Shown: positions 33,374 through 47,710 of the stretch, piece by piece | Position numbering within the stretch: position 1 is the stretch's first letter | How the letters are laid out: each line of letters begins with the position of its first letter | Origin: Alphaproteobacteria bacterium | GTDB lineage: Bacteria > Pseudomonadota > Alphaproteobacteria > Rickettsiales > UBA8987 | DNA length: 64,000 nucleotides | Direction: 5' to 3' | NCBI GenBank assembly: GCA_030429725.1 | Contig: JAUIEX010000002.1 | Location: forward strand, 5,229 to 69,228 | Notes under the pieces: model-generated | Told to the model about the DNA's origin: nothing | The model's input: the letters and a program-made list of their open reading frames with translations, nothing else | Databases searched by the model: none | Made by a program: the position numbers and the translations under genes

Positions 33374-33384
33374 GGTTTTCTCCT
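33347..33384. repeat. 38-bp direct repeat, copy 1 (RBS plus codons 1-9 of the fibre gene)
   Basis: GGCTAAATTCAAATTGGTTGTTGGCATGGTTTTCTCCT is identical to 34071..34108. Confidence 0.95.
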
Positions 33385-33426
33385 TATGGTGTTTAATACT
33401 TGGTCGTCTTGTGATAAAATCCACTC

Positions 33427-33714: not shown

Positions 33715-34046
33715 TGGAGAAGATCAACCCGAATTTCTTGCGCCTGAAAGACATGCTGCAAGCGATTGATGATGCCACTTCTGCCCACACACGCGGGCTG
33801 GATGACCGCCACCTGCTGATGGCAGCCTCCTACGCCATCGCCATCATCGGTGAGGGAGCAGGCAAACTTTCCACCGATTTTACCGCACAGCACTCCGCCA
33901 TTCCATGGCGGCAGATTATCGGCATGCGCCACCGCATCATCCACGATTATGGTAATGTAAGCCGCGCCCGCCTGGAAGAGGCAATTATCAGAGATTTACC
34001 CATTTTGAAGCAAGAGATTGAAGAGATTCTCGCATCTGATTTCTAA
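33711..34046 (+). CDS. hepT: HEPN/DUF86 toxin (HepT-type RNase)
   Basis: 111 aa with the R-x4-H motif in MRHRIIHDYGNV. The likely ATG is at 33714. Paired with the upstream nucleotidyltransferase. Confidence 0.8.
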   Translation: MMEKINPNFLRLKDMLQAIDDATSAHTRGLDDRHLLMAASYAIAIIGEGAGKLSTDFTAQHSAIPWRQIIGMRHRIIHDYGNVSRARLEEAIIRDLPILKQEIEEILASDF

Positions 34047-34070
34047 CTGGTTTTTTAGCTCAGTGAAGCA

Positions 34071-34108
34071 GGCTAAATTCAAATTGGTTGTTGGCATGGT
34101 TTTCTCCT
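34071..34108. repeat. 38-bp direct repeat, copy 2 (orphan RBS plus ATG plus 9 fibre codons)
   Basis: Identical to 33347..33384. On the minus strand it opens a 33-codon ORF (33996..34097) antisense to the 3' end of hepT. Confidence 0.95.
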
Positions 34109-34138
34109 GTTTTGGTGATTAAAAAATTCGTCATTGCC

Positions 34139-34292
34139 TAACTCCCCCTTCACGGGGGAGTCTGAATTTTAAGCATTAGCGCATAAATTCAGGTGGGGGT
34201 CATGTCGCTACATCTGAAGGCTGCAAAGAACCCCCACCGGATCACGCATCGTTTCACTCGCGCGCTCCGACTCCCCCGTGAAGGGGGAGTTA
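34139..34292. mobile_element. MITE-like nested-hairpin repeat, copy A
   Basis: Termini are TAACTCCCCCTTCACGGGGGAGTC (34139..34162) and its reverse complement GACTCCCCCGTGAAGGGGGAGTTA (34269..34292). Internal inverted repeats are TGAATTT/AAATTCA and GGTGGGGG/CCCCCACC. Confidence 0.85.
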
Positions 34293-34334
34293 GAGACTAA
34301 AACAAAACTTACTCATTCCTTAATTTTTACTTGC

Positions 34335-34348
34335 AGAGAGAGAGAGAG
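34335..34348. repeat. (AG)7 dinucleotide microsatellite
   Basis: AGAGAGAGAGAGAG lies between TTGCAG (34331..34336) and TATAAT (34356..34361). Confidence 0.95.
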
Positions 34349-34496
34349 TTTAAGTTATAATTAAGGTTCATTTTTAGCTTTGGCTGAAATGAATTAGTGA
34401 GCTTTGCTCACATGTTCTTTCACCGGCTTTTTGTGGCATTCGCCACTTAACGATTAGGAAGCTGGGTCATTTTTTATCACCTAAACTTTTCTTGTT

Positions 34497-34697
34497 ATGA
34501 AACGTATTTGGAACAACCCATTTTTTAGATTTCTAATTTATTTCGTCGGCCTGCAGGCCTTCGGCCTCGGGGCCGTGCGGGTCATTTCTTGGATCGCAGG
34601 CCTAACCCCCGACATGGTCGGGTGGGTCATTTTTTGCTTTATTGCGGGCGGCATCATTGCCCCCATGGCAGTATCATGGGATTTTGATGAAGACTAA
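34497..34697 (+). CDS. Hypothetical 66-aa protein with two transmembrane helices
   Basis: An ATG ORF with two hydrophobic helices (FFRFLIYFVGLQAFGLGAV; VGWVIFCFIAGGIIAPMAV), followed by a long-stem hairpin and a T-run. No family recognised. Confidence 0.4.
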   Translation: MKRIWNNPFFRFLIYFVGLQAFGLGAVRVISWIAGLTPDMVGWVIFCFIAGGIIAPMAVSWDFDED

Positions 34698-34704
34698 TCC
34701 CGCC

Positions 34705-34806
34705 AAACCCTCCCTTCCCATACGGCACCGGGACGCAATCTTGCCGCAGCTTTCAAGCTCGCCGCATGATCGTCCAAACGCCGCAGGGGAAGGGAGGGTT
34801 TTTTTA
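34705..34806 (+). terminator. Long-range hairpin plus T-run after the 66-aa ORF (possible terminator)
   Basis: AAACCCTCCCTTCCC (34705..34719) pairs with GGGAAGGGAGGGTTT (34787..34801) and is followed by TTTTT. The loop is large (about 67 nt). Confidence 0.35.
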
Positions 34807-34844
34807 TGCCCGAAAGAAAAGCTTCTACCCAACTCCCCATCTAC

Positions 34845-35034
34845 TAAACTCCCCACTTGTGGGGGAGTCGAGGTGCGGCCTGTGAGATAAAATCGAGCGC
34901 CGCAACTCGGTGGGGGCTGCAAACTGCAAACCGCTAACTGCAACCCTCTACTCAACTCTCACCGCTCAATGACCCCCACCGGATCACGCATCGTTTCACT
35001 CGCGCTCTCCGACTCCCCCGTGAAGGGGGAGTTA
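34845..35034. mobile_element. MITE-like nested-hairpin repeat, copy B
   Basis: Left end is TAAACTCCCCACTTGTGGGGGAGTC and right end is GACTCCCCCGTGAAGGGGGAGTTA (35011..35034). The right ~60 nt are nearly identical to copy A. It contains a 7-nt periodic stretch (CTGCAAA CTGCAAA CCGCTAA CTGCAAC...). It ends 8 nt before the g15 stop. Confidence 0.85.
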
Positions 35035-35042
35035 AAGGCCAC

Positions 35043-38000
35043 CTAAACACTCACCTCCGCCGGTCGGCCACGCCCAATGCGCTCGGACATTTGATAAATC
35101 TTCACACTCACGCTGCTTTGCGGGCTGCCAAAATCGCTTGTTTGATCCGCAGCGTCATAGCTAACGGATGGAGTGGAGGCACTCAGCGTGCGAACCACAT
35201 CTTCACCGTCCAGAATGTCGATCTCATAGGCTTCGGAGGCCTCCGAAAGCGGCACGTCCACACCATCCCGCCAGCTGCCGCCATGGCGCGTGCGGCGAAT
35301 CCAGCTGATCGTCAGGTTGCCCGCCCCATCACGCTCCCCCGCCACATGCGCAGGTGCATATGGCTTCAGCGCATTGGCATTGTAAGCAAAGCTCTGCGCG
35401 TTGGTTTCTCCCAGTGTTTCACCAATCGAAACCGCCTTATAGAGCCGCGACAGGCCAATCAGCCCATCCGGCATATTCACCTTACCGATGCGGCTATCCA
35501 GCAGCACGAAATCATCCCCTGCCGCATGGCTTACAGTGGCATGCTCCGTGCCCAGCCGCCCGCGCAGCAAGCCACTTAAGCGATATTCACCCGCACTCAC
35601 CAGAGTTGCAGTGGTAAACTGAATCACCTCCCCGCCCAGCAGTGCCGCATTGGCGCCGTTCAGTAATGCCTCCGTAGAAACACTCTCCAGCGTGCCGTTG
35701 GAAAGCAGCACGGTCACATTATTTGCAACATCCATCACACCCGCCGCGCCATCCGCCAGCGCCGTAATGGCTTTGCCCATCACCGCCCGATTATTATTCA
35801 CCAGCACCTGCCCATAACGCGCACCGCCATCGTCCGAGCGATAGAGAATACTGCCCTGCCAGCCGGATTCCTCCCCGCTAACGGCCACCCGCAGCAAAGC
35901 GTCCTCTGCATCATCGCCGGCCAGCAGCGGCACATCCAGCAGCTTCAACCGCGTGGCGCCCGCCGGCACTTCCGCCTGAGTGCTGCCGCTTGTTTCCGCC
36001 GCCGCGGCGTCACTTTCATAAAGCGCCACATCCTCCGCAATGCCTTTGCAACGAAGGCGCCCACCTTCTTCCAGCGTGGTTTCCATAATGCGAATCGTGT
36101 GGCTTTGGCCGTTGCTTGTCACCGTCACCACATCGGCAGGAGAGATTGCCGCATATTTCGGCGGCAGGATAAACTGATAACGCATCCTCGCCGTCCAGGC
36201 CTGACACAGCGCCACATCCGCCGCCATCTTGCCGCGCTCATCCCCCATCACGATCGGGAAATTGATGATATGTTTTTGATCGCTCGCTACGGATTGCCGC
36301 GACGCACGCTGGGTGCCGATCTGATAATCAAAACCCCGGCTGAGGTAATTCACCTCCACCGCTTTGGGCAGATCGGCCTCCTGCCCGCGTGTGATGGCCA
36401 GATGCACCGCCTTTCCACGCTGTTTGAAGGGCACCAATTCATCCTCGGCAATCGTTACCGCAGACGCATTGCCGCGCGGCAGATAGTCCACCTGCCCGTC
36501 TTCTTCCCGCGCATCAAAAAAATACGCTGCCTGAAGCTGCGCAATGGCACTTCGCGCACTCACCGGCTGTTTCAGCACATAGCCTTCCACCAAATCACTC
36601 AGCTTGGTAACATCCATTTCACCACTATTTAAGCCCGCACGCAGCCCAATATCCTGCACAATGGCGGCAAGGGAAGATAACCCCATTTTACCATTCACCC
36701 AATGCCCGGTTTTCCATAATCCGCCATCGGTCCAGATATTTGTCATTTCCGGCCAGAAGGAAAATGGCCGCGCATCCCATGTCCAGACAAATTTTTGCTC
36801 CACCATGGTAGAGCCTTCCCACGCGGTTTCCGTGGCCTGCAACCCTAAACGCTGCGCAGAATTATCCACCCGCCCGCGTGAAAAGCGCGGAAAGTAGCTC
36901 TCCGAACTGGTCGGGTCATAAAACACATTCGGCTGGTTGGTTGCCCCATCTACGGATGGAAAACCATATTCCGTGAACCAGAATGGCTTGGATTCCGGCA
37001 CCCAGGCAGTGGTGCTGGCATCCGGGTTCACATGCTCATTTTCCCAGAACCATTGCAGATTTTTCCACGCATATTGTGGGCTGATCGCCGCCTGCGTCGT
37101 TCGCGCTTCATCCGTATATACCCAGTCATACCCCTCCCCGCTTGTCCAGCCATCAATGGCTTTTTGCAGGGTGATGCCGCTTTGCGGCTCATCCGTCAGC
37201 GGGAAATAGGCATCAATGCCGATAAAGTCGATATTCGCCGAAGCCCAGAGCGGATCAAGATTATACCAGCCATCATCCGTGTGGTGATATTCGCTCCAAT
37301 CCGCAGCATAGGTCACCTTCGTGCCACTACCCACAATCGCCTTTACACTGGCCGCCAAGCTCACCAGCGCGTCCACCGCCGGGAAGGAATCATCCCCACT
37401 ATCCTGCACGGAAGTTAAGCCCACCAGCTCCGAACCAATGACAAACGCATCCACATTCGAAGCATCTGCCAAGTTCGCATAATGCGTTATAAATTCATTA
37501 TAACCATTTGTTTTTGTAAAGAAATTAGCAACATTACTAACGCTCCCCGTCACCCGGCCGCGCCATGGCTTATTTTCCGTATCCATAAAAAACATCGGGT
37601 ACAGCATCACCTGATAGCCCCGGCTTTTCAGCTCCCCTATCAACCGCGCAACCGAAGCATCCGAAGGCGTGCCGCCATAAACCGGGTTACCATTTTCATC
37701 GAGCGAAATTTGCGGTGCGGAGGCACGATCCCAACTGCCCACGCCCCACTGATCCGGCTCTGTTGTCGCGCCATCTTTATATTCCACATAGGGCTTGATC
37801 GTACAGCCCCCGGCGTCCACATCATCCCCAAACCATGTCACCACAACACTCACCCATTCTAGGTTTGGAAAAGTGGCCTCCAGCTGATCCAGCGACGCCA
37901 GCACATCCGCCTTGCCGCTCACATTATTCTGGTTAATGCGCACCTGCTCACCGCTTTCGAAAAAATCATCGCCAATCTGCTGGCCAATCAGTTTTTTCTG

Positions 38001-38693
38001 CACGTTGGTGTCATACACAAACTCCCCGGAACCGGGAATCATCGTCATCGCCGTAATCTGCTCTTCCAGCGGCGCATCACCACTATTAAGCGCAGATTTA
38101 CGCACCTCAAACGTAAAGTTAGGAATACGATTGCCAAATTGCTCAAGCGGAAAATCCTCAATCACCACATACGCCACCCCGCGATAAGCCGGCACAAAAC
38201 CACTACCAAGCTCCGCCTCCATGGCAGAATCCGGCAATTGATCTTCCGTTCCTTTATACAGGCGATAAACACCTGAATAGTCATTGATATTAATGGTTTT
38301 AGCATCCGCCCACACGCGCACCACCTCGTCAATCTCCCCTTCGCAAATCGCAATGGCCAGCGTCACGCTATAGCTATAGCTGGTCTGGGAAACACTGCGG
38401 CCGCTGCCGCCCTTGCCGCTGCCGGATTCTGTCGTCGTAGCACTTTCCATAATCGGCTTAGACCAGATCACATTGCCCGCCACACGCGCCGTGCCATAAA
38501 GCTGCGGCACCATGCGGCCATAGGTGGAGGTTTGCACCTGCAAATCTTCCAAGCGCGGGCCTTCCACCACCAGCTTCTGCCCGGGCAACACACCCAGCGC
38601 AGTATCAATCTGCGCGCCCAGCTGAATGCCTTGCAGCGCAAGGCCAATATCCCCCGAAGCCGCTCCTGCTGCGCCTAATACAAGTGTAGTCAT
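35043..38693 (-). CDS. GTA g15-type host-specificity / baseplate protein
   Basis: 1216 aa. The N-terminus (PRLEDLQVQTSTYGRMVPQLYGTARVAGNVIWS...SYSYSVTLAIAICEGEI) and the central glycoside-hydrolase-like region are typical of RcGTA ORFg15 homologues. It is in the last structural gene position. Confidence 0.85.
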   Translation of the reverse strand: MTTLVLGAAGAASGDIGLALQGIQLGAQIDTALGVLPGQKLVVEGPRLEDLQVQTSTYGRMVPQLYGTARVAGNVIWSKPIMESATTTESGSGKGGSGRSVSQTSYSYSVTLAIAICEGEIDEVVRVWADAKTININDYSGVYRLYKGTEDQLPDSAMEAELGSGFVPAYRGVAYVVIEDFPLEQFGNRIPNFTFEVRKSALNSGDAPLEEQITAMTMIPGSGEFVYDTNVQKKLIGQQIGDDFFESGEQVRINQNNVSGKADVLASLDQLEATFPNLEWVSVVVTWFGDDVDAGGCTIKPYVEYKDGATTEPDQWGVGSWDRASAPQISLDENGNPVYGGTPSDASVARLIGELKSRGYQVMLYPMFFMDTENKPWRGRVTGSVSNVANFFTKTNGYNEFITHYANLADASNVDAFVIGSELVGLTSVQDSGDDSFPAVDALVSLAASVKAIVGSGTKVTYAADWSEYHHTDDGWYNLDPLWASANIDFIGIDAYFPLTDEPQSGITLQKAIDGWTSGEGYDWVYTDEARTTQAAISPQYAWKNLQWFWENEHVNPDASTTAWVPESKPFWFTEYGFPSVDGATNQPNVFYDPTSSESYFPRFSRGRVDNSAQRLGLQATETAWEGSTMVEQKFVWTWDARPFSFWPEMTNIWTDGGLWKTGHWVNGKMGLSSLAAIVQDIGLRAGLNSGEMDVTKLSDLVEGYVLKQPVSARSAIAQLQAAYFFDAREEDGQVDYLPRGNASAVTIAEDELVPFKQRGKAVHLAITRGQEADLPKAVEVNYLSRGFDYQIGTQRASRQSVASDQKHIINFPIVMGDERGKMAADVALCQAWTARMRYQFILPPKYAAISPADVVTVTSNGQSHTIRIMETTLEEGGRLRCKGIAEDVALYESDAAAAETSGSTQAEVPAGATRLKLLDVPLLAGDDAEDALLRVAVSGEESGWQGSILYRSDDGGARYGQVLVNNNRAVMGKAITALADGAAGVMDVANNVTVLLSNGTLESVSTEALLNGANAALLGGEVIQFTTATLVSAGEYRLSGLLRGRLGTEHATVSHAAGDDFVLLDSRIGKVNMPDGLIGLSRLYKAVSIGETLGETNAQSFAYNANALKPYAPAHVAGERDGAGNLTISWIRRTRHGGSWRDGVDVPLSEASEAYEIDILDGEDVVRTLSASTPSVSYDAADQTSDFGSPQSSVSVKIYQMSERIGRGRPAEVSV

Positions 38694-38854
38694 AGAGAAT
38701 CTCTGTGGTTAAAAGTTAATTATTTTTTATATAACGCCATGCAAAGCGGCGTAACTTTAGGCATTCCCTGCACGCACCAATGCAAAAAAGCCTTTTATAT
38801 AAATGACTTGAAAAAAAAAACGATCTGTTAGAATTAAGTTACAATCTTTTGAAT

Positions 38855-38977
38855 ATGGAAGCATTTTCAATATGCCTGATGTTATTTGGTGTGTGCGTTT
38901 CAATTGGAGCCTTAACGGCACAGCTTAAACGCATCGCCGATTCATTAAGCGATAAGAATCAGGAAACTGATTCTTAA
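38855..38977 (+). CDS. Possible 40-aa single-TM ORF on the opposite strand inside the g14-g15 spacer
   Basis: ATG ORF MEAFSICLMLFGVCVSIGALTAQLKRIADSLSDKNQETDS. TTGAAA-15 nt-TAGAAT lies upstream. No clear RBS. Weak support. Confidence 0.2.
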   Translation: MEAFSICLMLFGVCVSIGALTAQLKRIADSLSDKNQETDS

Positions 38978-39090
38978 GCTTAGCCCCAAGCCTTTGGGCG
39001 ATATGATGCGTCATCACTGGCTCGTTCCAGTAACGCAAGCATACTCGTTTACAAAAAGGCTTCGGGGCTTTTTTATTTTCCACTTCTCTC

Positions 39091-39726
39091 CTAACGAAAT
39101 TCATACACCCCCACCAAGCGCCGCTGCCAGCTTGCATCAAAATGCGTTTCCACCACCTTCCCGGCCGGCAGATAGGCATGGATGAGGCGGATGTTAGGTT
39201 CGTCATTCCCAACTTGATTGGGAATCCAGTCTATTTTTTTATTTCCTGGATCCCGGGTCGGATCCTGATACTGCGCATCAGGGCCGGGGATGACAGCACC
39301 GGGAAAACTTTTCTCACTGCCCACTGCGCACTGCTCACTAAAAACCAAACCAACATGCTGCGGCTGATGACGCATGCGGAACAAGCCAATCCGCACATCA
39401 TTAGTAACTCCCCCCTCGTGGGGGAGTCGGAATCTTTGACTCCGGCGGGGGGGGAAATTATTTCCCTCGTTACTCTTCTCTCTTTCATCTTGAATAAAAT
39501 GCCGCCCCAGCATCATCTGCAAACGCTCGCCATCCGGCTCACGCGGGTAATCCCGCTCATCATAATCTGCCACAAGCCCGCCAGAGGCGGAAGGGAGTTT
39601 TAATGCCCGCGCCACTTCCACAATCAGCCCAATGCAATCCACTCCCACGCCCCTCACCCGCCCCTGATGGTGAAATGGTGTTTCCAGCCAGCTGCGTGCC
39701 TCGGTGATTATTTCTTCATTACTCAT
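39091..39726 (-). CDS. GTA g14-type NlpC/P60 cell-wall peptidase carrying repeat-derived in-frame insertions
   Basis: N-terminus EARSWLETPFHHQGRVRGVGVDCIGLI (catalytic Cys context), then LFRMRHQPQHVGLVF and IHAY...VVE (His contexts). At 211 aa it is longer than the ~150 aa I recall for g14 homologues. The extra segments coincide with repeat DNA. Confidence 0.8.
   Translation of the reverse strand: MSNEEIITEARSWLETPFHHQGRVRGVGVDCIGLIVEVARALKLPSASGGLVADYDERDYPREPDGERLQMMLGRHFIQDEREKSNEGNNFPPRRSQRFRLPHEGGVTNDVRIGLFRMRHQPQHVGLVFSEQCAVGSEKSFPGAVIPGPDAQYQDPTRDPGNKKIDWIPNQVGNDEPNIRLIHAYLPAGKVVETHFDASWQRRLVGVYEFR
39315..39342. repeat. 7-nt periodic array inside the g14 coding sequence
   Basis: CACTGCC CACTGCG CACTGCT CACTAAA, translated on the minus strand as FSEQCAVGSE. 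Confidence 0.6.
39405..39458. mobile_element. MITE-like half element, copy C, in frame inside g14
   Basis: TAACTCCCCCCTCGTGGGGGAGTC followed by GGAATCTTTGACTCCGGCGGGGGGGG matches the reverse complement of the right end of copy D. It is read through as FPPRRSQRFRLPHEGGVT. Confidence 0.8.
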
Positions 39727-39935
39727 TGTAATACCTAGATAAATTGAAAAATAGATGAGACATTATTGTTTAGAGTGCTTTCGCTTTTCTTTGGTGCTAG
39801 GCAGCCAAGGTGAATAAAATTTTAGCGTACCTTTGATGAGCGGTTGCGCTGTGCGCAGAGCGAATCAACAAAAATGCCTACATGAATTTTCCGAATCCGA
39901 TGGCTAACAAAGCGCACGACGGAATGAAAAATGCT

Positions 39936-40778
39936 CTAGCGTGTTCCAGCTGTTTTCAGCATCGCATCCGTGCCCGGAACATGCGGAAAGCCCCTGAAAT
40001 TACTTATATTATTAAACCGCTGACGGCAGGTGGTCAGCGTTTTATCACACCCGCCAATCAGCGAATAGCCATCCCCCACCTCCACGTCATAGGGCATGGG
40101 CAACATCAATGTCAGCTCACCGTTATTAAAATATTTCACCTCCATGCTCAGGCCGTCATTTGCCCCGCCAGTGAAAATTATCTGCCCGTGATTAAACAAA
40201 CCGGCCGTTTCACTGCGTGCTGAATCTGCAAACACCGTGCGGCTGGTCACCGCGGTCACCGTCCCCGTCACCGTATGCGCAGCCAGATTCACCCCGCAGC
40301 GCCCGTCACCAAGCTCAGCGTCGCAGCCGGGGGTAAATAACCGCCCGATAGTGGTATCCAGCTTTTGCATCAATCCGCGCAACTCCGCTGTGAAATGGCC
40401 CTCCCCGGTCTGCACCTCACCAATCCAGCCCGTGCGCAGATTCATCACCCCATCTTCAGGGGATTCCGCATTCATCAAAAAGAGCGAAACTTCCGCATAA
40501 TCGTATTTTCCGGCCAGAATATCGGCCTCCGTAATTGCTTCATCATCCAGAAGCCCCAGAAGTTCCAGCGCATCCACCGCCAGATCATCCCGCCCCTTCA
40601 CCGCAGAGGCATTAAAACCACTGCCAGCCTGATAGGTTACGCTGTCATATTCAATATCCTGATCATGCTCCGTAAAGCCAAGCACGGCACCATCACGCCG
40701 TGTTATTTTCCAGCAGGTGGCCAGGCTGGTCAGCTCGCCACCCAGATGGGTTTGTAAATTTGCAGAAACTGTTTTCAT
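39936..40778 (-). CDS. GTA g13-type tail hub protein (DUF2163 / BR0599 family)
   Basis: MKTVSANLQTHLGGELTSLATCWKITRRDGAVLGFTEHDQDIEYDSVTYQAGSGF..., 280 aa, with a C-terminal Cys-containing region. Confidence 0.85.
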   Translation of the reverse strand: MKTVSANLQTHLGGELTSLATCWKITRRDGAVLGFTEHDQDIEYDSVTYQAGSGFNASAVKGRDDLAVDALELLGLLDDEAITEADILAGKYDYAEVSLFLMNAESPEDGVMNLRTGWIGEVQTGEGHFTAELRGLMQKLDTTIGRLFTPGCDAELGDGRCGVNLAAHTVTGTVTAVTSRTVFADSARSETAGLFNHGQIIFTGGANDGLSMEVKYFNNGELTLMLPMPYDVEVGDGYSLIGGCDKTLTTCRQRFNNISNFRGFPHVPGTDAMLKTAGTR

Positions 40779-40821
40779 TGAAGTCCATTCATCGTTAAAA
40801 GTGAAGTGATCGTAGCATCAT

Positions 40822-40898
40822 GTTCCCGTAGCTCAGCAGGATAGAGCAACAGATTCCTAATCTGTAGGTCGGAGGTTCGAATCCTCTCGGGAACACCA
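40822..40898 (+). tRNA. tRNA-Arg (anticodon CCT)
   Basis: Manual cloverleaf. Acceptor stem GTTCCCG/CGGGAAC, D stem GCTC/GAGC, anticodon stem ACAGA/TCTGT with loop TTCCTAA, 5-nt variable loop, T arm GGAGG-TTCGAAT-CCTCT, discriminator A, encoded CCA. Confidence 0.9.
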
Positions 40899-41013
40899 TT
40901 CATTCTTTTTAAGGGTTAAGCAACAGCGCCTTAAAAAGGATGGATAATTTTCATTTGAGGATGAGAACAATGTTCGAAACCGAGGGCAACAGCCCGCAGG
41001 TTCGGCGAAGCCA

Positions 41014-41032
41014 ATCCTCTCGGGAACACCAA
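41014..41032 (+). repeat. Duplicate of the tRNA-Arg 3' end (att-like scar)
   Basis: AATCCTCTCGGGAACACCA is identical to 40880..40898. It is preceded by AGGTTCG (40999..41005), which resembles the T arm. Confidence 0.85.
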
Positions 41033-41037
41033 CAGCC

Positions 41038-41640
41038 CTAAACCCGCACTTCCACCAGCGGGATTGGGTTCACGGCAAAGGCGCCATAATCCTGCAGGCT
41101 GACGGAAAGCTGATCCACATCAAACCGCACCGGCACATCAAATTCAAAATCCGCCTGAATTGCCACCCCGCCACCCGGCGCACTATCAAACGTCACCTCG
41201 CCTGTGGCGGCATCCACAGTAACACCACTGCTTTGCAGCACGGAATCCAAATAGATATTCACCGTGCTATCCACCGGCTTGGTGATGTTGCGTGTTTCAG
41301 TGCGCGCACCACTTTGATAGGTCTTCACCAGCTGGAACACGGTGGTTGCACCATCGCCCGCGCCAATCACCTGCCCGGTTGCCTGATAATCCGCATGATC
41401 CTTGAAACGAAAGCCATAGGCACGCCCTTTGCGGGCACGAAAAAACGCAATCAGCGTATCCAGCTCCGCTTGTGTTTTCACCCCACGCGCCACATTATAA
41501 CGCGCGCGCGCCGCACTCCAATTCACATTGCGCTGTTCATACCCATTGGCAAGCATCACAATATCCGTGGCATATTCCGGCCCCCCGGTGCTGCCATAGG
41601 CAATGGCATCGGGAAAGCGCACTTCATCAAAAGCGGCCAT
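41038..41640 (-). CDS. GTA g12-type distal tail protein (DUF2460 family)
   Basis: MAAFDEVRFPDAIAYGSTGGPEYATDIVMLANGYEQRNVNWSAARARYNV...LIAFFRARKGRAYGFRFKD, 200 aa. Confidence 0.85.
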   Translation of the reverse strand: MAAFDEVRFPDAIAYGSTGGPEYATDIVMLANGYEQRNVNWSAARARYNVARGVKTQAELDTLIAFFRARKGRAYGFRFKDHADYQATGQVIGAGDGATTVFQLVKTYQSGARTETRNITKPVDSTVNIYLDSVLQSSGVTVDAATGEVTFDSAPGGGVAIQADFEFDVPVRFDVDQLSVSLQDYGAFAVNPIPLVEVRV

Positions 41641-41700
41641 ATTTATTCCTAATGTTTTAGGTTAAATTATTATTTTAAATAATTGATTATAATTGCATTA

Positions 41701-42387
41701 TCACGCAACAGTTCCGCGCCGTTGCCCGCGCTCCGGCGCAAACTCATCCGCACGATTGAGGGATGGCTTAAATTCCTGCTCATTACCAATGCCTTCCAGC
41801 AGCGCACCCAAATCAAACGCGTGCTTCATGCCATTCTCCATTTCTTCCATGCGGGCATAATGACGCTCCGTCTGCACAATGGCCACCATCATATGCTGGC
41901 GCTCGGCAATATCCGCCATCTGATCCGGCGTCAGATCTTCCACGGACAGCTCACTATTACTGCCATCCAGATAATCCCCCAGTTTTTGGGCAAGTTTGTT
42001 CATGCCCTGCATGCTAACCGCCACGCCAAGCTTATCCAGCGCCGTGGTGAGTTTTTCTTTCATTTCCAGTGAAAGTACACGATCTTCTTCCGTCGCATAA
42101 CTTCCTGAATCACTATTATTTTCGGATGAAGCATCACCACTACCATCCACAATGCCCCCGGCATCCGCAGGGATTTCTCTAAAACCACGCGGATCATCAA
42201 AACCCGCATTCGCGTCTTCCGCCGCGCCTTGATTTGACACCGGCTGGTCGGCCGGCATGCCGTTAATCATCCTTGTTAATTCCGGTGGCAATTCAAGCAA
42301 ACTACGCACACCGGCACCGGCAAGGCCACTGCCAATTTTCTGCGCTTCTGCTGCCAATGCATCATAACTCATAGTTAAATATACCAT
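41701..42387 (-). CDS. Acidic 228-aa protein at the tape-measure (g11) position
   Basis: Assignment is by position only (between the major tail module and the g12-like gene). It is acidic, low-complexity and helical. I see no similarity to the Gly-rich RcGTA g11 sequence as I recall it. Confidence 0.3.
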   Translation of the reverse strand: MVYLTMSYDALAAEAQKIGSGLAGAGVRSLLELPPELTRMINGMPADQPVSNQGAAEDANAGFDDPRGFREIPADAGGIVDGSGDASSENNSDSGSYATEEDRVLSLEMKEKLTTALDKLGVAVSMQGMNKLAQKLGDYLDGSNSELSVEDLTPDQMADIAERQHMMVAIVQTERHYARMEEMENGMKHAFDLGALLEGIGNEQEFKPSLNRADEFAPERGQRRGTVA

Positions 42388-42418
42388 AAAAAGCTTTAAA
42401 ATTCATTAAAATAATACC

Positions 42419-42715
42419 TTAATGACCACCTAAATTAAGAAGTGATTCAAAAATATTGCTACCGCCATCCGCAGAAAAACGCCCACCGGACGCCCCCACC
42501 CCGTCTGAAAGACCGGAAAGCTGCTGCACAAAACCTGAAATTTCCTGAAATTGCTGAATTAATCGCAACATATCCTCCAATTGTTTCAGGCCATTGGTAA
42601 AATCATCGCTTATAATTGAACGAAACTCACTTCGCAAAATGCGGCTTGTGCGGAGCAATGTTTCCATTTGCGCCTGCATTTCCTGCAATTGATTTGAGCT
42701 TAAATTCTCTTCCAT
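42419..42715 (-). CDS. 98-aa coiled-coil protein at the tail-chaperone (g10) position
   Basis: Assignment is by position only. It starts 9 nt after the major-tail stop. Helical heptad-rich sequence with a Gly-rich tail. Confidence 0.3.
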   Translation of the reverse strand: MEENLSSNQLQEMQAQMETLLRTSRILRSEFRSIISDDFTNGLKQLEDMLRLIQQFQEISGFVQQLSGLSDGVGASGGRFSADGGSNIFESLLNLGGH

Positions 42716-42724
42716 ATCAAACCT

Positions 42725-43135
42725 TTAAGCAGCGTTATAAGTAACATTTCCGGAGGATTGCAGCACCACGCGCACCTCCTCCGCACCGTTGATTGCCCCC
42801 TGCCGCTGATAATCCCTGATCATCGCCGGAAGCACCATGTCATCCCCATTACCAAAGCTCACTTTTACATTGGCCGCCGCGCCATTAAAGGCCATTGCCC
42901 GCAGGCTTTCTTCCACTGAAGCATCCGTAAAAAGCCCTTCCAGCGTCAACTGCACCTGCGCAATGCCACTTTCACCCAGCTCCTTCTGCCATGCACCGCT
43001 GGTGACATACACGGCCGGCACCGGGCGGCGCTGAATGCGAAGCTCTGTCACGCGCACACCCGGCAATAACGTAAACACTTCCGGATCCGCACCATCACCC
43101 AATGCACATGTTAAATTTTTACCCGCCTGAATCAT
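42725..43135 (-). CDS. GTA g9-type major tail protein (TP901-1 family)
   Basis: 136 aa. ...VTSGAWQKELGESGIAQVQLTLEGLFTDASVEESLRAMAF... matches the RcGTA g9 pattern. Position fits. Confidence 0.8.
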   Translation of the reverse strand: MIQAGKNLTCALGDGADPEVFTLLPGVRVTELRIQRRPVPAVYVTSGAWQKELGESGIAQVQLTLEGLFTDASVEESLRAMAFNGAAANVKVSFGNGDDMVLPAMIRDYQRQGAINGAEEVRVVLQSSGNVTYNAA

Positions 43136-43143
43136 AGCTCAAC

Positions 43144-43548
43144 CTATTGTTTTTGAATACGAAATCTTATTAAACACTCAGCCTGATAGCCAATCACATC
43201 GCGGTGCACTTCCGCCTCAACGCCCTCCAGCCAGTGGTCAATCACCGCGTGGTTAGATAACGCTAAATTCGAGGCCTCCAACACAGCCACCGCCCTTTCG
43301 ATAATCTCAAGCACCGTCAGGCGTGATGGCACATCGCTATGCGCGCGCAAAACAACATCCAGACGCGAAATATCCACGTTCAATGCCGGTTCACTCACAG
43401 ATTCAGTCATGTTAATTAAGAGATAGGGCGATTCAGCGCCTTGCGGTGCATGGTCATAAATCCCGCTAACCAGCGCCGCCAATGTTGCATCCGCCGTCAG
43501 CTCACTATAAATCGCCGCTTGAAGCTCTTTCCAGCCCAAAGCACTCAT
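43144..43548 (-). CDS. GTA g8-type tail completion protein (DUF3168)
   Basis: 134 aa, LTADATLAALVSGIYDHAPQGAESPYLLI. ATGA overlap with the upstream gene. Confidence 0.75.
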   Translation of the reverse strand: MSALGWKELQAAIYSELTADATLAALVSGIYDHAPQGAESPYLLINMTESVSEPALNVDISRLDVVLRAHSDVPSRLTVLEIIERAVAVLEASNLALSNHAVIDHWLEGVEAEVHRDVIGYQAECLIRFRIQKQ

Positions 43549-43898
43549 AACGCCACCCCACTTTCAGCAATAATGTCCAACTGCTCTTTGCGCCCCGTTG
43601 GATCAGACAAACTCCGAATATTGAGCATTTCATCCTGATAACAGATACTCATAGATTGAGTTAGATTATCCTTATATCGTATTGTTATTTTATATTTTTT
43701 CTTATTATTAATTTTACCATTTTCCATAATCTCTTTACTGGCCTGCGCAGGCGAATATGGCAGAACTTCCGCCCAGACCGTGCCAATATTCACCCAACTC
43801 ACCGTAAAACCTCCGGCAAAATCGGATGTGCGAACAGGATTACGAAAACTAATGCGTGATGTCAGACGGGATGCCAGAATATCTTTTTTCATCACCAC
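43545..43898 (-). CDS. GTA g7-type head-tail adaptor / head-closure protein
   Basis: 117 aa, RISFRNPVRTSDFAGGFTVSWVNIGTVWAEVLPYS... typical of SPP1 gp16 / HK97-type adaptors. Confidence 0.8.
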   Translation of the reverse strand: MVMKKDILASRLTSRISFRNPVRTSDFAGGFTVSWVNIGTVWAEVLPYSPAQASKEIMENGKINNKKKYKITIRYKDNLTQSMSICYQDEMLNIRSLSDPTGRKEQLDIIAESGVAL

Positions 43899-43899
43899 C

Positions 43900-44442
43900 T
43901 CACAAATAAATCACGCGGTAAGGGTCATATTGCATCAGCGTATCGGGCGGCAGATTTGTCTGGCCACGATGCTCAAACATATAGGCCACATGCGCCAGCA
44001 AGCCCTGTTGAATATCATAGGGAACCTGGCTGGCATCGCCATAACCCGCCACATATTCCACCTCCACCATGTGCGCCACGGGGGAAATATCGAACCGCAA
44101 TGCGGCATTCCCGGCCGAAAGCGTATAAGCACTGCCGGATAATGCCTGTGAAGTGCCGTCACGTGTGGTCAGCGTCACCGCCATAATTGATTGCACGGGC
44201 CCACGCATCAATTGCACCCGGGCGGGCGCAAAATCATCAAAACCCATTTTCCAGCGCTGCGTAATCAGCGAACGCCGCATGAATTTCTCCGCTGCCAGCC
44301 GCGCTGCGCGAATCATCTGCAGCAAGGTGATATCCTCATCCTGCTCATCAATTTTTAGGTATAATTTTGTTTCTGCCAAACTGAGTGGCTCCGTTGACGG
44401 AGCAAGAGTTTGGGTTAAATGCGGCATGCGTGATGTCAGCAT
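43900..44442 (-). CDS. GTA g6-type head-tail connector (gp6-like)
   Basis: 180 aa, LSLAETKLYLKIDEQDEDITLLQMIRAARLAAEKFMRRSLITQ... is a connector-family N-terminus. Confidence 0.8.
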   Translation of the reverse strand: MLTSRMPHLTQTLAPSTEPLSLAETKLYLKIDEQDEDITLLQMIRAARLAAEKFMRRSLITQRWKMGFDDFAPARVQLMRGPVQSIMAVTLTTRDGTSQALSGSAYTLSAGNAALRFDISPVAHMVEVEYVAGYGDASQVPYDIQQGLLAHVAYMFEHRGQTNLPPDTLMQYDPYRVIYL

Positions 44443-44501
44443 GGATAGACTCCAGGAATTGGGATTACAGAGATAATGTGAATAGTGTGCAGTGTTCGGT
44501 T

Positions 44502-44670
44502 TAACTCCCCCTTCACGGGGGAGTCTGAATTTCGAGCGTGAGCGAAGAAATTCAGGTGGTGGTTTCTGCCGATCGAAGGCAGAAAACAGAGGACTGACGA
44601 GCTAATTTCTGACTTCTGACTAACCCCCACCGGAATCAGAGATTCCGACTCCCCCGTAAAGGGGGAGTTA
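44502..44670. mobile_element. MITE-like nested-hairpin repeat, copy D
   Basis: Left end TAACTCCCCCTTCACGGGGGAGTC (44502..44525), right end GACTCCCCCGTAAAGGGGGAGTTA (44647..44670). Internal pairs are TGAATTT/AAATTCA and TTTCTGCC/GGCAGAAA. Confidence 0.85.
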
Positions 44671-44719
44671 TAGCTTTTTCTCTTTAACTGCTCATTACCC
44701 ACTGCATACTGCTTACCAA

Positions 44720-45130
44720 CTAAGCCACCGGTGCATCGGCAGCCTGGGATTGCAGTGCCACGGCGGCAATCGGCGCATTGCCGGTATTGCCTGCCGGCGT
44801 AATAGTCAGGCGCACATAGCGCTTGCTGCCATTGTAACCAATCTTCTTCACCACATCGTCATTGGCAAAGGTGAAGGAAGCATCCGCTTCCGTGCCTAAC
44901 AGATTCGCATCCGCCACGGCTGCCGCGTCACTAAGGTCACTGGCGTCACCCTCTTCCACCAGCGTGGTGAAGGTGGCATCGGCGTCAGCCAGCGTGCCGG
45001 TCAGAATGCCAAATTCCAGCGTGTTAAAGCCCTGCATGTCAATGATCTGGCTCACCGCCGCCGTGTTATCCGTAATCACCGCCGGGCTGATCGCACGGCT
45101 GAGTTTAATGTTGTTATGGAGGTCTTTCAT
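44720..45130 (-). CDS. 136-aa phage head-associated protein (possible decoration/cement protein), not in the canonical RcGTA set
   Basis: An intact ORF between the capsid and connector genes, bracketed by MITE copies D and E. Ala/Asp/Thr-rich beta-type sequence ending ...KKIGYNGSKRYVRLTITPAG... The family name is not recognised with certainty. Confidence 0.4.
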   Translation of the reverse strand: MKDLHNNIKLSRAISPAVITDNTAAVSQIIDMQGFNTLEFGILTGTLADADATFTTLVEEGDASDLSDAAAVADANLLGTEADASFTFANDDVVKKIGYNGSKRYVRLTITPAGNTGNAPIAAVALQSQAADAPVA

Positions 45131-45169
45131 AGTGTTATCCTTTTTTGTGATTTGTTAGATTGTGAACTC

Positions 45170-45381
45170 TAATTCCCCCCTGAATGCCCCGAAGCGCGAA
45201 GCGCGTGGGGCGATTCAAAATGTGGGGGAGTCGCAGAGCCGCTTGCGTAGCGCGGCGAAGCGTGGGGGGGGCATTTTACAAAAAGATTGCTCAGCAAAAT
45301 AATCAAGGCCGTGTGTTCCTTGAACACCCCCCACGACTCACACCTTCGGTGCTCGTCTGCTCCCCCTCAAGGGGGGAGCTA
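45170..45381. mobile_element. MITE-like repeat, copy E (subfamily 2, with a nested insertion in its left hairpin)
   Basis: TAATTCCCCCC [TGAATGCCCCGAAGCGCGAAGCGCGTGGGGCGATTCAAAATG] TGGGGGAGTCGCAGAGCCG... ...GCTCCCCCTCAAGGGGGGAGCTA. It is collinear with copy F apart from the bracketed insertion. Confidence 0.8.
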
Positions 45382-45393
45382 TTTTTACGCAAC

Positions 45394-46584
45394 CTAAGAA
45401 GCCAATTTCAGCAGTTTGATGGCCTCAAAGTTCACCACATCACCGCCCACACGTTTGGTGCTATAGAACTTCACGAACGGTTTTTCAGTGTACGGATCAC
45501 GCAGGATGCGAACACCCGCACGGTCAACAATCTGATAGGCACGGCTGAAATCACCCACCGCCACGGAAAGTGTGTCCGTATCCGGCGTTGGCATATCCGC
45601 CGCCTGAAGCACAGGAACGCCCATCAGCGTATCCGGCGTGCCCGTCACCAGACCCGGATTCCACAGATACTGATTCGTGGTCGCTTCTTTCAGCAACCGC
45701 GCCTGCTGCACGGCAGAACGGCTCATCAGGAAGGTGGCGCGGGTGGCATATTCCTCTTTCAGTGCATAGAAAATCTGCACCAGACCATCGGCTGTCACCT
45801 GCCCGTCCGTGCCGGAGTCGATCTGTTCGATCTGCCCCCAGCCTGTGCCGGCATCATAGCTTAAGATGCCGCGCGGCTTGCCCACTCCGTCCCCGGAAAT
45901 AAACGCCGTGTTTTCCTTGCGGGTAAACACATCCGTCAGCTTGCCGGAAAGCCAGCCTTCAATATCCACGCTCGCATCATCAATCAGCTTTTGTGTTGCT
46001 TTGGGTTGAGCGCGGAGTTCATGCACAGGGATGATCTTTTTATTCACCTGCGGTGTGGTGGTATCGGAAATGCTGTCTGCCTCCGCATACCAGCCCGCGC
46101 CGGCCTCATCCTTATCCACAATCACTTCCAGCGAATCGGAGGAAATCGTCTCCACCGCCGCCAGTTGACGCATAGGGGAAGATTCAAACACCGTCTTAGC
46201 AATGGTTTGTGCCATGGTTGGCGTCACCAGATAGCCGCCATCCGGGTCGGAAGCCGCAGAAAGCGCCTTCTTCTCAAGGTAGGAAAGTTCTTCCTCCACA
46301 CCTTTGCGCAGATAGTTACAAAAGGCGGTCTTATGATCGCGCACATCAGGGCTGGCAATGGTAGCACCCCCCATCTCCGGCCGGCTGATGGCCGTTTCCA
46401 GCGTATGCATCCGGCTCTTTTGCTCATCCAGCGCGTTGGAAATGCGCCCCAAATGCTCTGTTGTCAGCGCGTCGGCATTGCCTTTGCGCTCAATTTCCTG
46501 CAAGCGGCGATCATTGATCGACTTAAACTGCTCCCAGGTGTTGCCAAGCGTTTCCATACGCTCCGTTAATTCACGTAAACTCAT
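45394..46584 (-). CDS. GTA g5-type major capsid protein (HK97 fold)
   Basis: 396 aa with an N-terminal coiled-coil delta-like region, then an HK97-family body (...GGYLVTPTMAQTIAK..., ...NQYLWNPGLVTGTPDTLMGVPV...). Confidence 0.9.
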   Translation of the reverse strand: MSLRELTERMETLGNTWEQFKSINDRRLQEIERKGNADALTTEHLGRISNALDEQKSRMHTLETAISRPEMGGATIASPDVRDHKTAFCNYLRKGVEEELSYLEKKALSAASDPDGGYLVTPTMAQTIAKTVFESSPMRQLAAVETISSDSLEVIVDKDEAGAGWYAEADSISDTTTPQVNKKIIPVHELRAQPKATQKLIDDASVDIEGWLSGKLTDVFTRKENTAFISGDGVGKPRGILSYDAGTGWGQIEQIDSGTDGQVTADGLVQIFYALKEEYATRATFLMSRSAVQQARLLKEATTNQYLWNPGLVTGTPDTLMGVPVLQAADMPTPDTDTLSVAVGDFSRAYQIVDRAGVRILRDPYTEKPFVKFYSTKRVGGDVVNFEAIKLLKLAS

Positions 46585-46671
46585 ACGATTTCTCCTTTGT
46601 GATGAGTTGGTTAGTTAGAGTAAAGTAGCGCCGTCGCTATAAAGCGCGCGAGCCAGTAACCGCCTGCCTTA

Positions 46672-46828
46672 TAACTCCCCCCTCGAGGGGGAGTCGCAGA
46701 GCCGTCTACGTAGCACGGCGATGCGTGGGGGGGCCGCCTGAATACAACTATAACTGAATGACCCCCCACGACTCCGCGTCGCTGCATGCGCAGCTTGCTT
46801 CGTCCGCTCCCCCTCAAGGGGGGAGCTA
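46672..46828. mobile_element. MITE-like repeat, copy F (subfamily 2)
   Basis: Left end TAACTCCCCCCTCGAGGGGGAGTC (46672..46695), right end GCTCCCCCTCAAGGGGGGAGCTA (46806..46828). Its last 3 nt are the protease stop codon. Confidence 0.85.
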
Positions 46829-47383
46829 GTAGTGAAGCGCCCGCTCCGCTTTTTCCACGGCCCGTAGCAACCGTTTCAGCATCAGCGGGGAAATCTCCTC
46901 CGGCAATTCGGCCTTCTCCTCACGCTTCACACTGGTCACCGTTGCCAATTCATTGGCGGGGAAAGTGACCAGGGAAACTTCCCACAAATCCGCCTGCAAA
47001 ATCTTCCGCACGCCGGTTTCCGGATTCACCTCCGTCTGCTTGGCGGTATAGCCAATGCTTAACCCATCCAGCGCGCCGGATTGCAGCAGGCTGTGCGCCT
47101 CCCGCGCCCGCGCCACATCCAGCAGCAGCTGCCCCTCCACATAAAGCCCGCGCCTGTCCTCACGGATGGTGGTCAACACGCCGATAGGCTCCTCCGGCTT
47201 ATGCTGCCACAGCAGCTTGATATCCGCCGGCTTCTGCGCCAGCAAACTCTCACGGAATGCCCCGCGCATCACAACATCCTTCTGCCGATCCGTCACCTCA
47301 AACACGCTGGCATAGCCGGAGAAAAACCCGCTCTCCTTCACATCCTCCAGCATCAAACTGCTTGCTAACTGTTTCTTTTGCAT
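46826..47383 (-). CDS. GTA g4-type prohead protease (HK97 family)
   Basis: 185 aa, GFFSGYASVFEVTDRQKDVVMRGAFRESL...LLWQHKPEEPIGV... Confidence 0.88.
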   Translation of the reverse strand: MQKKQLASSLMLEDVKESGFFSGYASVFEVTDRQKDVVMRGAFRESLLAQKPADIKLLWQHKPEEPIGVLTTIREDRRGLYVEGQLLLDVARAREAHSLLQSGALDGLSIGYTAKQTEVNPETGVRKILQADLWEVSLVTFPANELATVTSVKREEKAELPEEISPLMLKRLLRAVEKAERALHY

Positions 47384-47397
47384 GATTTCTCCTATTT

Positions 47398-47530
47398 CAA
47401 CTCCCCCTTCATGGGGGAATATGCAGTAAAAAATTATTCCCCCCTGGTGGGGGAATCGACATCTATGATGTCGATGGGGGGCACCCTCACCGGAATCAAA
47501 GATTCCGACTCTCCCATCAAGGGAGAGTCA
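47398..47530. mobile_element. MITE-like repeat, copy G (composite/diverged)
   Basis: CAACTCCCCCTTCATGGGGGAAT..., ATTCCCCCCTGGTGGGGGAATCGAC/GTCGATGGGGGG..., CCGGAATCAAAGATTCCGACTCTCCCATCAAGGGAGAGTCA. Confidence 0.7.
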
Positions 47531-47585
47531 TTGCCTACTGGCTCGCAGATCACCCTGTCATCCTTGAGGGCAAGAAAAAGTTTCT

Positions 47586-47664
47586 GTCATTCCAGCGAAA
47601 GCTGGAATCTCTAACCTCTTGCACTGATCATTATCCAGAGATCCCAAATCAAGTTTGGGATGAC
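47586..47664. mobile_element. Second small hairpin-ended element (GTCATTCC...GGAATC type)
   Basis: GTCATTCCAGCGAAAGCTGGAATC (47586..47609; 8-bp stem, GAAA loop) and the inverted ATCCCAAATCAAGTTTGGGATGAC (47641..47664). A relative, GTCATTCCCAACTTGATTGGGAAT, lies inside g14 (39203..39225). GTCATTGCGAGG...GCAATC lies at 32408..32444. Confidence 0.6.
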
Positions 47665-47682
47665 AAAAACGCCCCCTACGCA

Positions 47683-47710
47683 CTGCCTACTGCCTACTGC
47701 CTACTGCACA
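47683..47710. repeat. Heptamer tandem array abutting the portal stop codon
   Basis: CTGCCTA x3 plus CTGCACA, then the stop (CTA at 47711..47713). On the mRNA strand this reads TAG TGTGCAG TAGGCAG TAGGCAG TAGGCAG. Confidence 0.9.

Follow-up and report, generated by a model that had tools for sequence, protein, structure and literature searches.

Palindromic repeats of a dispersed five-helix family have probably accumulated in a permissive gene transfer agent locus

Why do seven copies of one structured, non-coding repeat lie within a single gene transfer agent (GTA) cluster, and does the cluster use them or merely tolerate them? The cluster, of the Rhodobacter capsulatus GTA (RcGTA) type, was delimited by Pfam matches and open reading frames (ORFs) to 32480..51262 on the minus strand of a 64-kb window, by which we mean the whole stretch of 64,000 nucleotides analysed here (alphaproteobacterial assembly GCA_030429725.1, contig JAUIEX010000002.1, positions 5,229 to 69,228). 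The window has a G+C content of 49.9%, and its 1-32 kb and 51-64 kb portions are housekeeping DNA (str/S10/spc ribosomal-protein operons, EF-G, EF-Tu and others). A first-pass annotation had described the repeats as a nested-hairpin family resembling miniature inverted-repeat transposable elements, or MITEs, seen within the window only inside the GTA locus, and had offered two inferences: that GTA spacers are unusually permissive targets, or that the elements act there as RNA hairpins that segment, stabilise or terminate the transcript. With a probability of roughly 0.7, we conclude that they are dispersed non-coding, non-autonomous palindromic repeats, of the kind represented by dimers of repetitive extragenic palindromes (REPs), by REP doublets forming hairpins (REPINs) and by Rickettsia palindromic elements (RPEs), which have piled up in a permissive, much-invaded GTA locus.

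We searched the window with the core hairpin pattern CTCCCCCN5GGGGGAG, allowing up to two mismatches, and obtained 13 matches, all within 34142-47527, whereas chance alone predicts 0.15. Run unfiltered over the whole window, a covariance model made from 38 copies returned exactly seven elements, scoring 106 (A), 90 (D), 88 (F), 80 (B), 51 (G), 33 (E) and 19 bits (C); the top match beyond these, at 34704-34802 (14 bits), falls in the same locus, and in the remaining ~50 kb of the window, outside 34.1-47.6 kb, there was no match at E<0.05. Repeat analysis and self-BLAST of the window recovered the copies and their subfamilies independently, A and B having 83 nt in common at 88%, A and D 62 nt at 89%, and E and F 47 nt at 89% plus a 29-nt end at 97%. 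The ends of an element are inverted copies of each other (96% over 28 nt in A, 91% over 32 nt in D). Full copies fold with energies of -70 to -99 kcal/mol, and all copies lie far below shuffled controls (z -5 to -11). These data bear out the initial description of a seven-copy nested-hairpin family with two subfamilies, inverted ends and stable folds.

Copies A (34139..34292) and B (34845..35034) both occupy the g15/DUF2793 interval. A is a full element, with two terminal hairpins around three inner hairpins (minimum free energy (MFE) -93.1 kcal/mol, z -11.5, arms 96% complementary), and stands 16 nt from a duplicated DUF2793 5' end; B is a full element with an enlarged central loop containing a CTGCNNA heptamer tract (MFE -91.0 kcal/mol), and on the right it stops 8 nt short of the stop codon of g15. 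This interval, which measures 1.6 kb and also houses a toxin-antitoxin pair and a small ORF, is only ~40 nt long in the relative L132. Between A and B, just past a + strand 66-aa ORF, the 14-bit match (E ~0.01) is a 97-nt palindrome, AAACCCTCCCTTCCC...GGGAAGGGAGGGTTT, possibly either a terminator or a remote member of the family. Copy C (39405..39458) is a half element in inverted orientation, set in frame inside the NlpC/P60 gene g14 (~aa 90-108, read as NFPPRRSQRFRLPHEGGVT) and 85% complementary to the right arm of D. Copy D (44502..44670) is a full element in the spacer between a 136-aa gene and g6 (arms 91% complementary, MFE -88.5 kcal/mol, z -10.5). Copies E (45170..45381, its score falling over 45221-45369) and F (46672..46828, MFE -93.3 kcal/mol) make up the E/F subfamily: E lies in the capsid/136-aa gene spacer with its right end 12 nt from the capsid stop codon, and F lies in the protease/capsid spacer, where its last three bases, CTA, are complementary to TAG, the stop codon of the protease gene (46826-46828). 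A 37-nt palindrome (45181-45217) nested in E splits its left terminal hairpin, confirming the second small palindrome noticed there on first reading. Copy G (47398..47530), rearranged and with an extra hairpin, lies in the portal/protease spacer, abuts the protease ribosome-binding site and has a right arm 85% identical to that of D. Of the seven, C alone is not in a spacer, being a half copy within a gene.

Alignment of the window copies with those of other genomes showed that 38 full copies follow a single plan, xAACTCCCCCC-TTGA-GGGGGAGTCG / variable hairpin / GGTGGGGGG...CCCCCCACC / variable hairpin / CGACTCCCCC-TCAA-GGGGGGAGTTx, that is, five helices in which a terminal hairpin and a variable hairpin stand on each side of the GGTGGGGGG...CCCCCCACC central stem. 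Full copies measure 112-190 nt (112-165 nt in other genomes). The terminal hairpins, 24 nt long and built of G/C runs, have 8-9 bp stems and 4-5 nt loops and are inverted copies of each other, while the two small inner hairpins vary in sequence between lineages and keep their pairing. The consensus fold also pairs the termini with each other (98% of cells), enclosing three inner helices. Over the 39 consensus pairs, 94.7% of cells form standard pairs compared with 83.1% for shuffled partners and 50-62% for slid partners, and double-change cells number 165 compared with 51 and 16-40, respectively. Compensatory changes occur in all 13 pairs of the two variable hairpins, and the loops of the left and right terminal hairpins co-vary as TTGA-TCAA, TTGC-GCAA and TTCAC-GTGAA (loop bases AU:28, CG:10). 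Because of these compensatory changes and the loop covariation, the element evolves as one folded unit. The folded form could be RNA, single-stranded DNA in the course of mobilisation, or both, and covariation by itself does not distinguish between them.

The family extends far beyond this locus. We scanned 185,579 species genomes with AACTCCCCCN5GGGGGAGTC, for which ~17 chance matches are expected in the whole collection, and found the terminal hairpin in more than 110 genome blocks of 8 kb. The metagenome-assembled genomes (MAGs) holding these blocks are labelled Rickettsiales, Alphaproteobacteria, Azospirillum, Rhodospirillaceae, Pseudohongiellaceae, Gammaproteobacteria and Opitutales, or are unclassified chromosomes 3-4.4 Mb in size. 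The covariance model identified ~84 distinct full copies, from more than 25 MAGs, in the first 100 blocks listed. GTA genes are present in one of the 110 hairpin blocks listed (L103); elsewhere, copies flank cysH, cysI (sulfite reductase), a sirohaem-synthase-like gene, queE, queC and DAHP synthase. Some non-GTA blocks (L012, L065, L003 and L090) have 3-5 copies clustered within 8 kb, densities that are biased upwards because the blocks were chosen for holding the hairpin. Confinement to the GTA locus is therefore a property of the copies in the window, where the covariance model upholds it, but not of the family, since 109 of the 110 listed blocks are without GTA genes. Nor is the family phage-borne: 2.9 million viral contigs yielded three lone hairpins only. 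A search of Rfam at gathering and permissive thresholds found no repeat family, only tRNA-Arg passing and the best sub-threshold match being whalefall-1, which scored 23 bits over part of G where the threshold is 37, and a full-text literature search for the hairpin strings found no paper. The family is apparently undescribed.

Copies are also found within protein-coding genes. In five MAGs, six housekeeping genes between them contain seven full copies in frame, the host ORFs encoding an addA/UvrD-like helicase-nuclease (1161 aa), MutS (961 aa), an AroA-Cmk fusion (701 aa), alanyl-tRNA synthetase (alaS, two copies), UvrC and an ileS-like class-I aminoacyl-tRNA synthetase (1306 aa). All seven share the same 5' reading frame, one of the two open there, which is read as N/S-S-P-L/P-E-G-E-S ... 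S-V-G-G (NSPLEGES...SVGG). The repeat-hosting class-I aminoacyl-tRNA synthetase of L073 (259-4179) also has, embedded in its synthetase core at aa 417-559, a domain of the GNAT acetyltransferase type. In the window, the NlpC/P60-type peptidase gene g14 (39091..39726, minus strand) hosts two in-frame repeat inserts and encodes 211 aa, compared with 130-175 aa in homologues. In the g14 protein alignment, the stretch contributed by copy C (residues ~90-108) is missing from 11 of 12 homologues, and a second insert, made of a REP dimer tagged with CGTC and a heptamer tract (residues ~128-179), is missing from all 12; g14 nonetheless keeps every residue invariant across the homologues. In the MAG CAZPQM01, almost the same loop of the orthologue (193 aa) carries a REP-type insert that differs from these. 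Intragenic REPs are often located in replication and repair genes (PMC3733652).

How closely, then, is the family tied to GTAs? A capsid-protein scan of metagenomes returned 62 related loci at 32-73% identity, which with L103 and L113 make 64 GTA-type loci. Family members are absent from 60 of these, and compact element-free clusters exist (for example L175), so the elements are lineage-specific additions. Where members do occur, L103 has copies in the capsid/g6 and g12/g13 spacers; L113 has a copy in the portal/protease spacer and a weaker variant in protease/capsid; L130 has a CTCTCCC/GGGTGAGGG variant in protease/capsid and also upstream of portal and of terL; and L173 has a distant type. 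In genomes hosting the family, the GTA head module is repeatedly colonised. The first-pass annotation had suggested testing for enrichment of the repeats in the locus, and a comparison within the window does give a difference: 6 of 21 junctions inside the locus are occupied and 0 of 53 outside it (Fisher p=2.9e-4; p=0.013 by non-coding length), the outside comparator amounting to ~2.2 kb of spacer in total and coming mostly from essential, highly expressed, tightly packed ribosomal-protein operons. An intrinsic link between family and GTA is contradicted by the scarcity of GTA genes among the listed hairpin blocks, by the 60 copy-free GTA-type loci and by the in-frame copies in housekeeping genes.

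Two further features of the related clusters were observed. Almost all GTA spacers of L113 (CAZPQM01) contain palindromic repeats that belong to other families (5286-5442, 6660-6775, 7690-7880, 8700-9080 and 10590-10886), including CGTC-type GTCATTGCGAG...CTCGCAATGAC, CCCTCACC/GGGAGAGG and tandem GCCCGGGTAAAACAG units. In L122, L123, L125, L127 and L129-L131, the head genes are often split (portal/protease, protease/capsid, capsid/g6) by 2-3 kb inserts with extra ORFs, which makes the clusters of this clade much less compact than the classical RcGTA layout.

Of the two original inferences, permissive spacers fits best, the locus having also acquired REPs of the CGTC type, a pair of toxin-antitoxin modules, a tRNA gene and small ORFs running antisense. 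We propose that an enzyme acting in trans would copy the elements into other sites of the genome, and that copies would survive where they are harmless, namely in the short stretches separating a stop codon from the ribosome-binding site that follows and also, read in a single frame, within the loops of proteins. Because the GTA locus would have been permissive and repeatedly invaded in this lineage, it could have accumulated the seven copies along with its other guests. Once there, the copies would be read through in the polycistronic GTA RNA, where their stem-loops could act as 3'-exonuclease barriers or processing sites, most plausibly in the case of E, after the capsid gene.

Several observations weigh against accumulation by tolerance. 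No transposase, REP-associated tyrosine transposase (RAYT) or parent insertion sequence was found in the sampled blocks. The copies are flanked by TA...TA in the window and by AT/CA...TG/AT in other MAGs, and because these flanks are self-complementary a target-site duplication is indistinguishable from an extension of the repeat. Clustering within the GTA locus is nominally significant in the junction comparison, and three other lineages (L103, L113 and L130) have family members in head-module spacers. Lastly, hairpins after capsid genes and a strand asymmetry of folding, described below, lend modest support to selection at the RNA level as opposed to pure tolerance, and leave room for it.

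The search for a mobilising enzyme took several forms. When 1,749 ORFs from the 110 blocks were clustered in search of a linked gene, no family was present in more than six blocks, the top ORF families near copies being a surface protein, an ABC ATPase and an IS1182-like transposase, the last limited to three high-GC genomes. A tblastn search of ~1.4 Mb of sampled DNA, with an E. coli RayT sequence as an approximate query, gave no match. No hairpin pair in the sampled blocks encloses a transposase-sized ORF, the longest variants being 430 nt and non-coding. As neither a mobilising enzyme nor a parent insertion sequence was found, we infer mobility from the distribution of the copies. The IS1182-like transposase was considered as a parent and rejected, the ORFs near some copies having different flanks; its ORF recurs near copies in the high-GC unclassified chromosomes L007, L019, L020, L024 and L084, in which a recurring flank, TTTTGGTTGAGCGCACGCTTTTGAA, abuts the terminal hairpin. 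The IS1182-like element may be an insertion sequence that landed beside or within the repeats.

The first alternative to be weighed is that the elements are selected RNA modules of the GTA operon, domesticated from the family, which segment the transcript and set mRNA and protein levels, F and E bracketing the capsid gene; we consider this unlikely. Read along the GTA sense strand, no U-tract comes after the terminal hairpins, the only terminator-like structures being inner hairpins of G (the extra hairpin followed by U6, 47456-47436) and B (34909-34894), and the T-runs next to A, D and E lie on the antisense strand. Because of this absence of U-tracts the copies would be read through, and would therefore form very stable intercistronic stem-loops. 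We examined the 100 nt after stop codons in the related loci, scoring z<-2 as structured. After the capsid gene 54% of 63 loci are structured, compared with 6% for a control window inside the capsid gene (63 loci); the corresponding values are 17% after portal (24 loci), 15% after g6 (26 loci), 11% after g12 (18 loci) and 8% after g13 (13 loci). The post-capsid structures are built from unrelated sequences, among them simple hairpins, several REP types, heptamer palindromes and true terminators. Copy E occupies this post-capsid position, an L103 copy stands at the same place in the same orientation, and copies in L130 and L113 lie upstream of capsid. The post-capsid signal, however, partly reflects the mere existence of a spacer there.

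Orientation and folding give a similarly divided picture. All six E/F-type copies between co-directional genes share one orientation, which would suit an RNA module, but the other subfamily is present in both orientations within one operon of the L016 MAG. Fourteen intergenic copies between co-directional genes lean towards a stabler fold on the sense strand, whereas the eight intragenic copies tend to fold more weakly there (Mann-Whitney p=0.016), as would be expected if a G·U pair on either strand became an A·C mismatch on the other. These RNA-signal tests were chosen after the data had been seen, and they rely on small samples and on junctions that were not matched for spacer length. Most related clusters, moreover, work without the family, and identical elements are found in unrelated operons and inside ORFs. 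The position of E itself is ambiguous, since a hairpin so near a stop codon can reduce upstream output: E. coli REPs can protect upstream mRNA, and an E. coli REP hairpin within ~15 nt of a stop codon can lower expression or translation of the upstream gene. A more general version of selection is that the GTA-type head modules of this clade need a stable stem-loop after, and often before, the major capsid gene, which any palindromic DNA may supply, E and F having been recruited here; we put this forward tentatively, as a doubtful extension of the post-capsid data.

A second alternative is that the clustering reflects a mechanistic insertion preference, the enzyme targeting existing hairpins or the TA of stop codons, so that the locus would be a true hot spot. 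Element ends do lie 0-12 nt from stop codons (12 nt for E, 8 nt for B, 2-8 nt for the L103 copies, and an overlap with the protease TAG for F), the simple post-capsid hairpins of relatives could be targets, and a palindrome has inserted into a hairpin of E itself. Copies also cluster in other genomes, and both repeat families of the window are confined to the GTA locus. The intragenic copies, however, were inserted in mid-ORF where no stop codon or hairpin is evident, and survivorship bias, by which only harmless insertions persist, would give the same picture; we regard an insertion preference as rather improbable. Finally, we reject the notion, by far the least credible, that the elements are attC-like or REP-mediated recombination sites delimiting cassettes (136-aa gene D-E, protease F-G, small ORF A-B). 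Head-module genes are indeed individually bracketed by copies, and the ends loosely resemble ...YAAC / GTTR... core sites by eye. However, no integrase was found either in the window or beside the copies of the sampled blocks, the genes so enclosed are ancestral (in the element-free relatives L116, at 54% identity, and L154, capsid is followed by a 136-aa gene homologue) and in standard GTA order, and copies in ORFs and housekeeping operons do not fit cassette boundaries.

The invaded character of the locus, on which the favoured reading of accumulation in permissive DNA draws, is apparent from the remainder of its contents. The cluster order is terL, portal (PF04860), S78 prohead protease, HK97-type capsid (PF05065), the 136-aa gene, g6 to g11, g12 (DUF2460), g13 (PF09931/PF09356), g14, g15 (GTA_TIM, Phage-tail_3, Rcc01698_C) and the DUF2793 gene. 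A RelB/YafQ pair is inserted between terL and portal, and a nucleotidyltransferase/HEPN-like toxin-antitoxin pair is inserted elsewhere in the cluster, flanked by a 52-nt direct repeat. The repeat (92% identical, 33347-33396 and 34071-34122) flanks this pair at 33427-34046, has doubled the DUF2793 gene's 5' end and resembles a footprint left by the module's insertion. A tRNA-Arg(CCT) gene at 40822-40898 (+), on the opposite strand to the cluster, lies between g13 and g12 and is followed by a 40-nt imperfect inverted repeat at 40875-40968. Two small hydrophobic + strand ORFs run antisense to the GTA genes, one of 66 aa (34497-34697) in the g15/DUF2793 interval and one of 39 aa (~38866-38985) in the g14/g15 spacer, each with promoter-like and terminator-like signals. 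The 136-aa gene (44720-45130, minus strand), which has no Pfam match, lies between capsid and g6; because ~137-aa homologous or analogous ORFs follow capsid in many relatives (L116, L154, L122, L123 and L130), it seems to have joined the head module as a clade-specific addition. We also considered a foreign origin for the locus, which is not indicated. The G+C content at third codon positions (GC3) is 0.59 in GTA genes and 0.51 in housekeeping genes, a GC3 above that of housekeeping genes being usual for GTA clusters, and orthologous clusters are present in relatives with comparable EF-G identity. Among the best EF-G matches (76-84% identity) is the 'Rickettsiales' MAG CAZPQM01 (82%), which has an orthologous GTA cluster.

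The second repeat family consists of REPs of the CGTC type, which our pattern scan located at 39201, 47585 and 47641, again confined within the window to the GTA locus. Each unit comprises CGTC or TGTC, an AT-started 8-bp stem, a 4-5 nt loop and a CCA or CTC tail, and by these features the family fits the published definition of alphaproteobacterial CGTC-tagged REPs (PMC3733652). One dimer with its heptamer tract (39190..39345) forms the second in-frame insert of g14, its unit at 39201-39228 reading CGTC ATTCCCAA CTTGA TTGGGAAT CCA. Another, CGTC/TGTC-tagged, lies at 47560..47710 between the portal stop codon and copy G, with units at 47585-47608 (+) and 47641-47665 (-), and is followed by a CTGCCTA heptamer tract. 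Tracts of four to five heptamers, (A)CTGCNN on the + strand, are present at 47672-47708, 44688-44718, 39318-39345 and 34905-34935. They follow directly on the stop codons of portal and the 136-aa gene, adjoin REP-type elements, or lie within g14 and the central loop of copy B. Palindromic heptamer arrays also follow the capsid gene in the relatives L130, L140, L133, L156 and L153. Two Logan contigs identical to the window (L001 and L112) are broken exactly at repeat copies, L001 corresponding to window 45356-46808, from E to F; since short-read contigs break at the copies, assemblies of the GTA locus are fragmented.

These findings have practical and evolutionary implications. They describe a widely distributed and apparently new five-helix palindromic repeat family that lies in frame in repair and translation genes of uncultured bacteria, and whose presence matters for MAG annotation through spurious 'NSPLEGES' peptides, split Pfam domains and assembly breaks. 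A GTA cluster can evidently tolerate heavy invasion yet retain intact ORFs. A post-capsid stem-loop supplied by unrelated sequences in different lineages is possibly a general feature, and if E and F were indeed recruited, selfish repeats would be raw material for tuning the stoichiometry of GTA head proteins.

How does the family compare with known systems? On the GTA sense strand its terminal hairpins do not have the form of intrinsic terminators. Hairpins that stabilise or attenuate messages between cistrons include the malE-malF REP and the stem-loops after phage major capsid genes, and copy E recalls these in being a very stable stem-loop, without a sense-strand U-tract, right after the gene for an abundant product in an operon; it differs in being a copy of a dispersed repeat whose function here is predicted. 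Like MITEs derived from insertion sequences, such as the Neisseria Correia elements and the enterobacterial repetitive intergenic consensus or intergenic repeat units (ERIC/IRU), the copies have terminal inverted repeats, lie well under ~500 bp (those elements being 100-170 nt), contain no ORF, would be co-transcribed with their neighbours and would form long RNA hairpins of the kind that can be processed or can stabilise mRNA. Correia elements have TA at both ends, as do the copies in the window; since the ends are CA...TG in other genomes, this TA may belong to the repeat and not to a target duplication. Unlike those elements, each terminal repeat is itself a perfect hairpin, and no parent insertion sequence with matching ends was found in the sampled blocks.

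RPE-1 to RPE-10 are likewise palindromic repeats of 100-150 nt in Alphaproteobacteria, located in spacers and also in frame in genes, essential ones included, where they add 20-50 residues without destroying the protein; g14 and the seven copies in housekeeping genes show the same behaviour. Compared by description only, the present family differs from the AT-rich rickettsial elements in its G/C-run hairpins and in genomes of ~50-65% G+C, and its hosts include Gammaproteobacteria and unclassified MAGs. REP dimers, bacterial interspersed mosaic elements (BIMEs) and REPINs (Bertels & Rainey 2011, PMC3116915; Di Nocera et al. 2013, PMC3733652) offer a further parallel. The terminal hairpins have the dimensions of REP units (20-40 bp palindromes with 5-13 bp stems and short loops), and all of the ~84 full copies are inverted pairs of them around hairpin-bearing spacers. 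As in REPINs, these short G/C-rich palindromes enclose a spacer so that the whole would fold into one long hairpin, a fold to which the paired termini and co-varying loop bases point. The Agrobacterium CGTC-3 dimers also have structured spacers, with small stem-loops at both ends (PMC3733652), and CGTC REPs similarly have no known dedicated transposase. The differences from REPs are that the stems are C5-6/G5-6 runs and not AT-started, that the spacer has a conserved third stem (GGTGGGGGG/CCCCCCACC) within a fixed five-helix plan, and that the GTAG/CGTC tag, present in the second family at the positions given above, is replaced in the main family by TCGA, CCGA, CAGA or CCCG next to the stem. 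REPIN sequences are usually lineage-specific and are associated with RAYTs, whereas here the plan is conserved across classes and no RAYT was found in the sampled blocks. The family nevertheless behaves in its genomes much as REPs do, with many copies per genome, mostly after genes and between co-directional or convergent ones, and with occasional intragenic copies, notably in repair genes.

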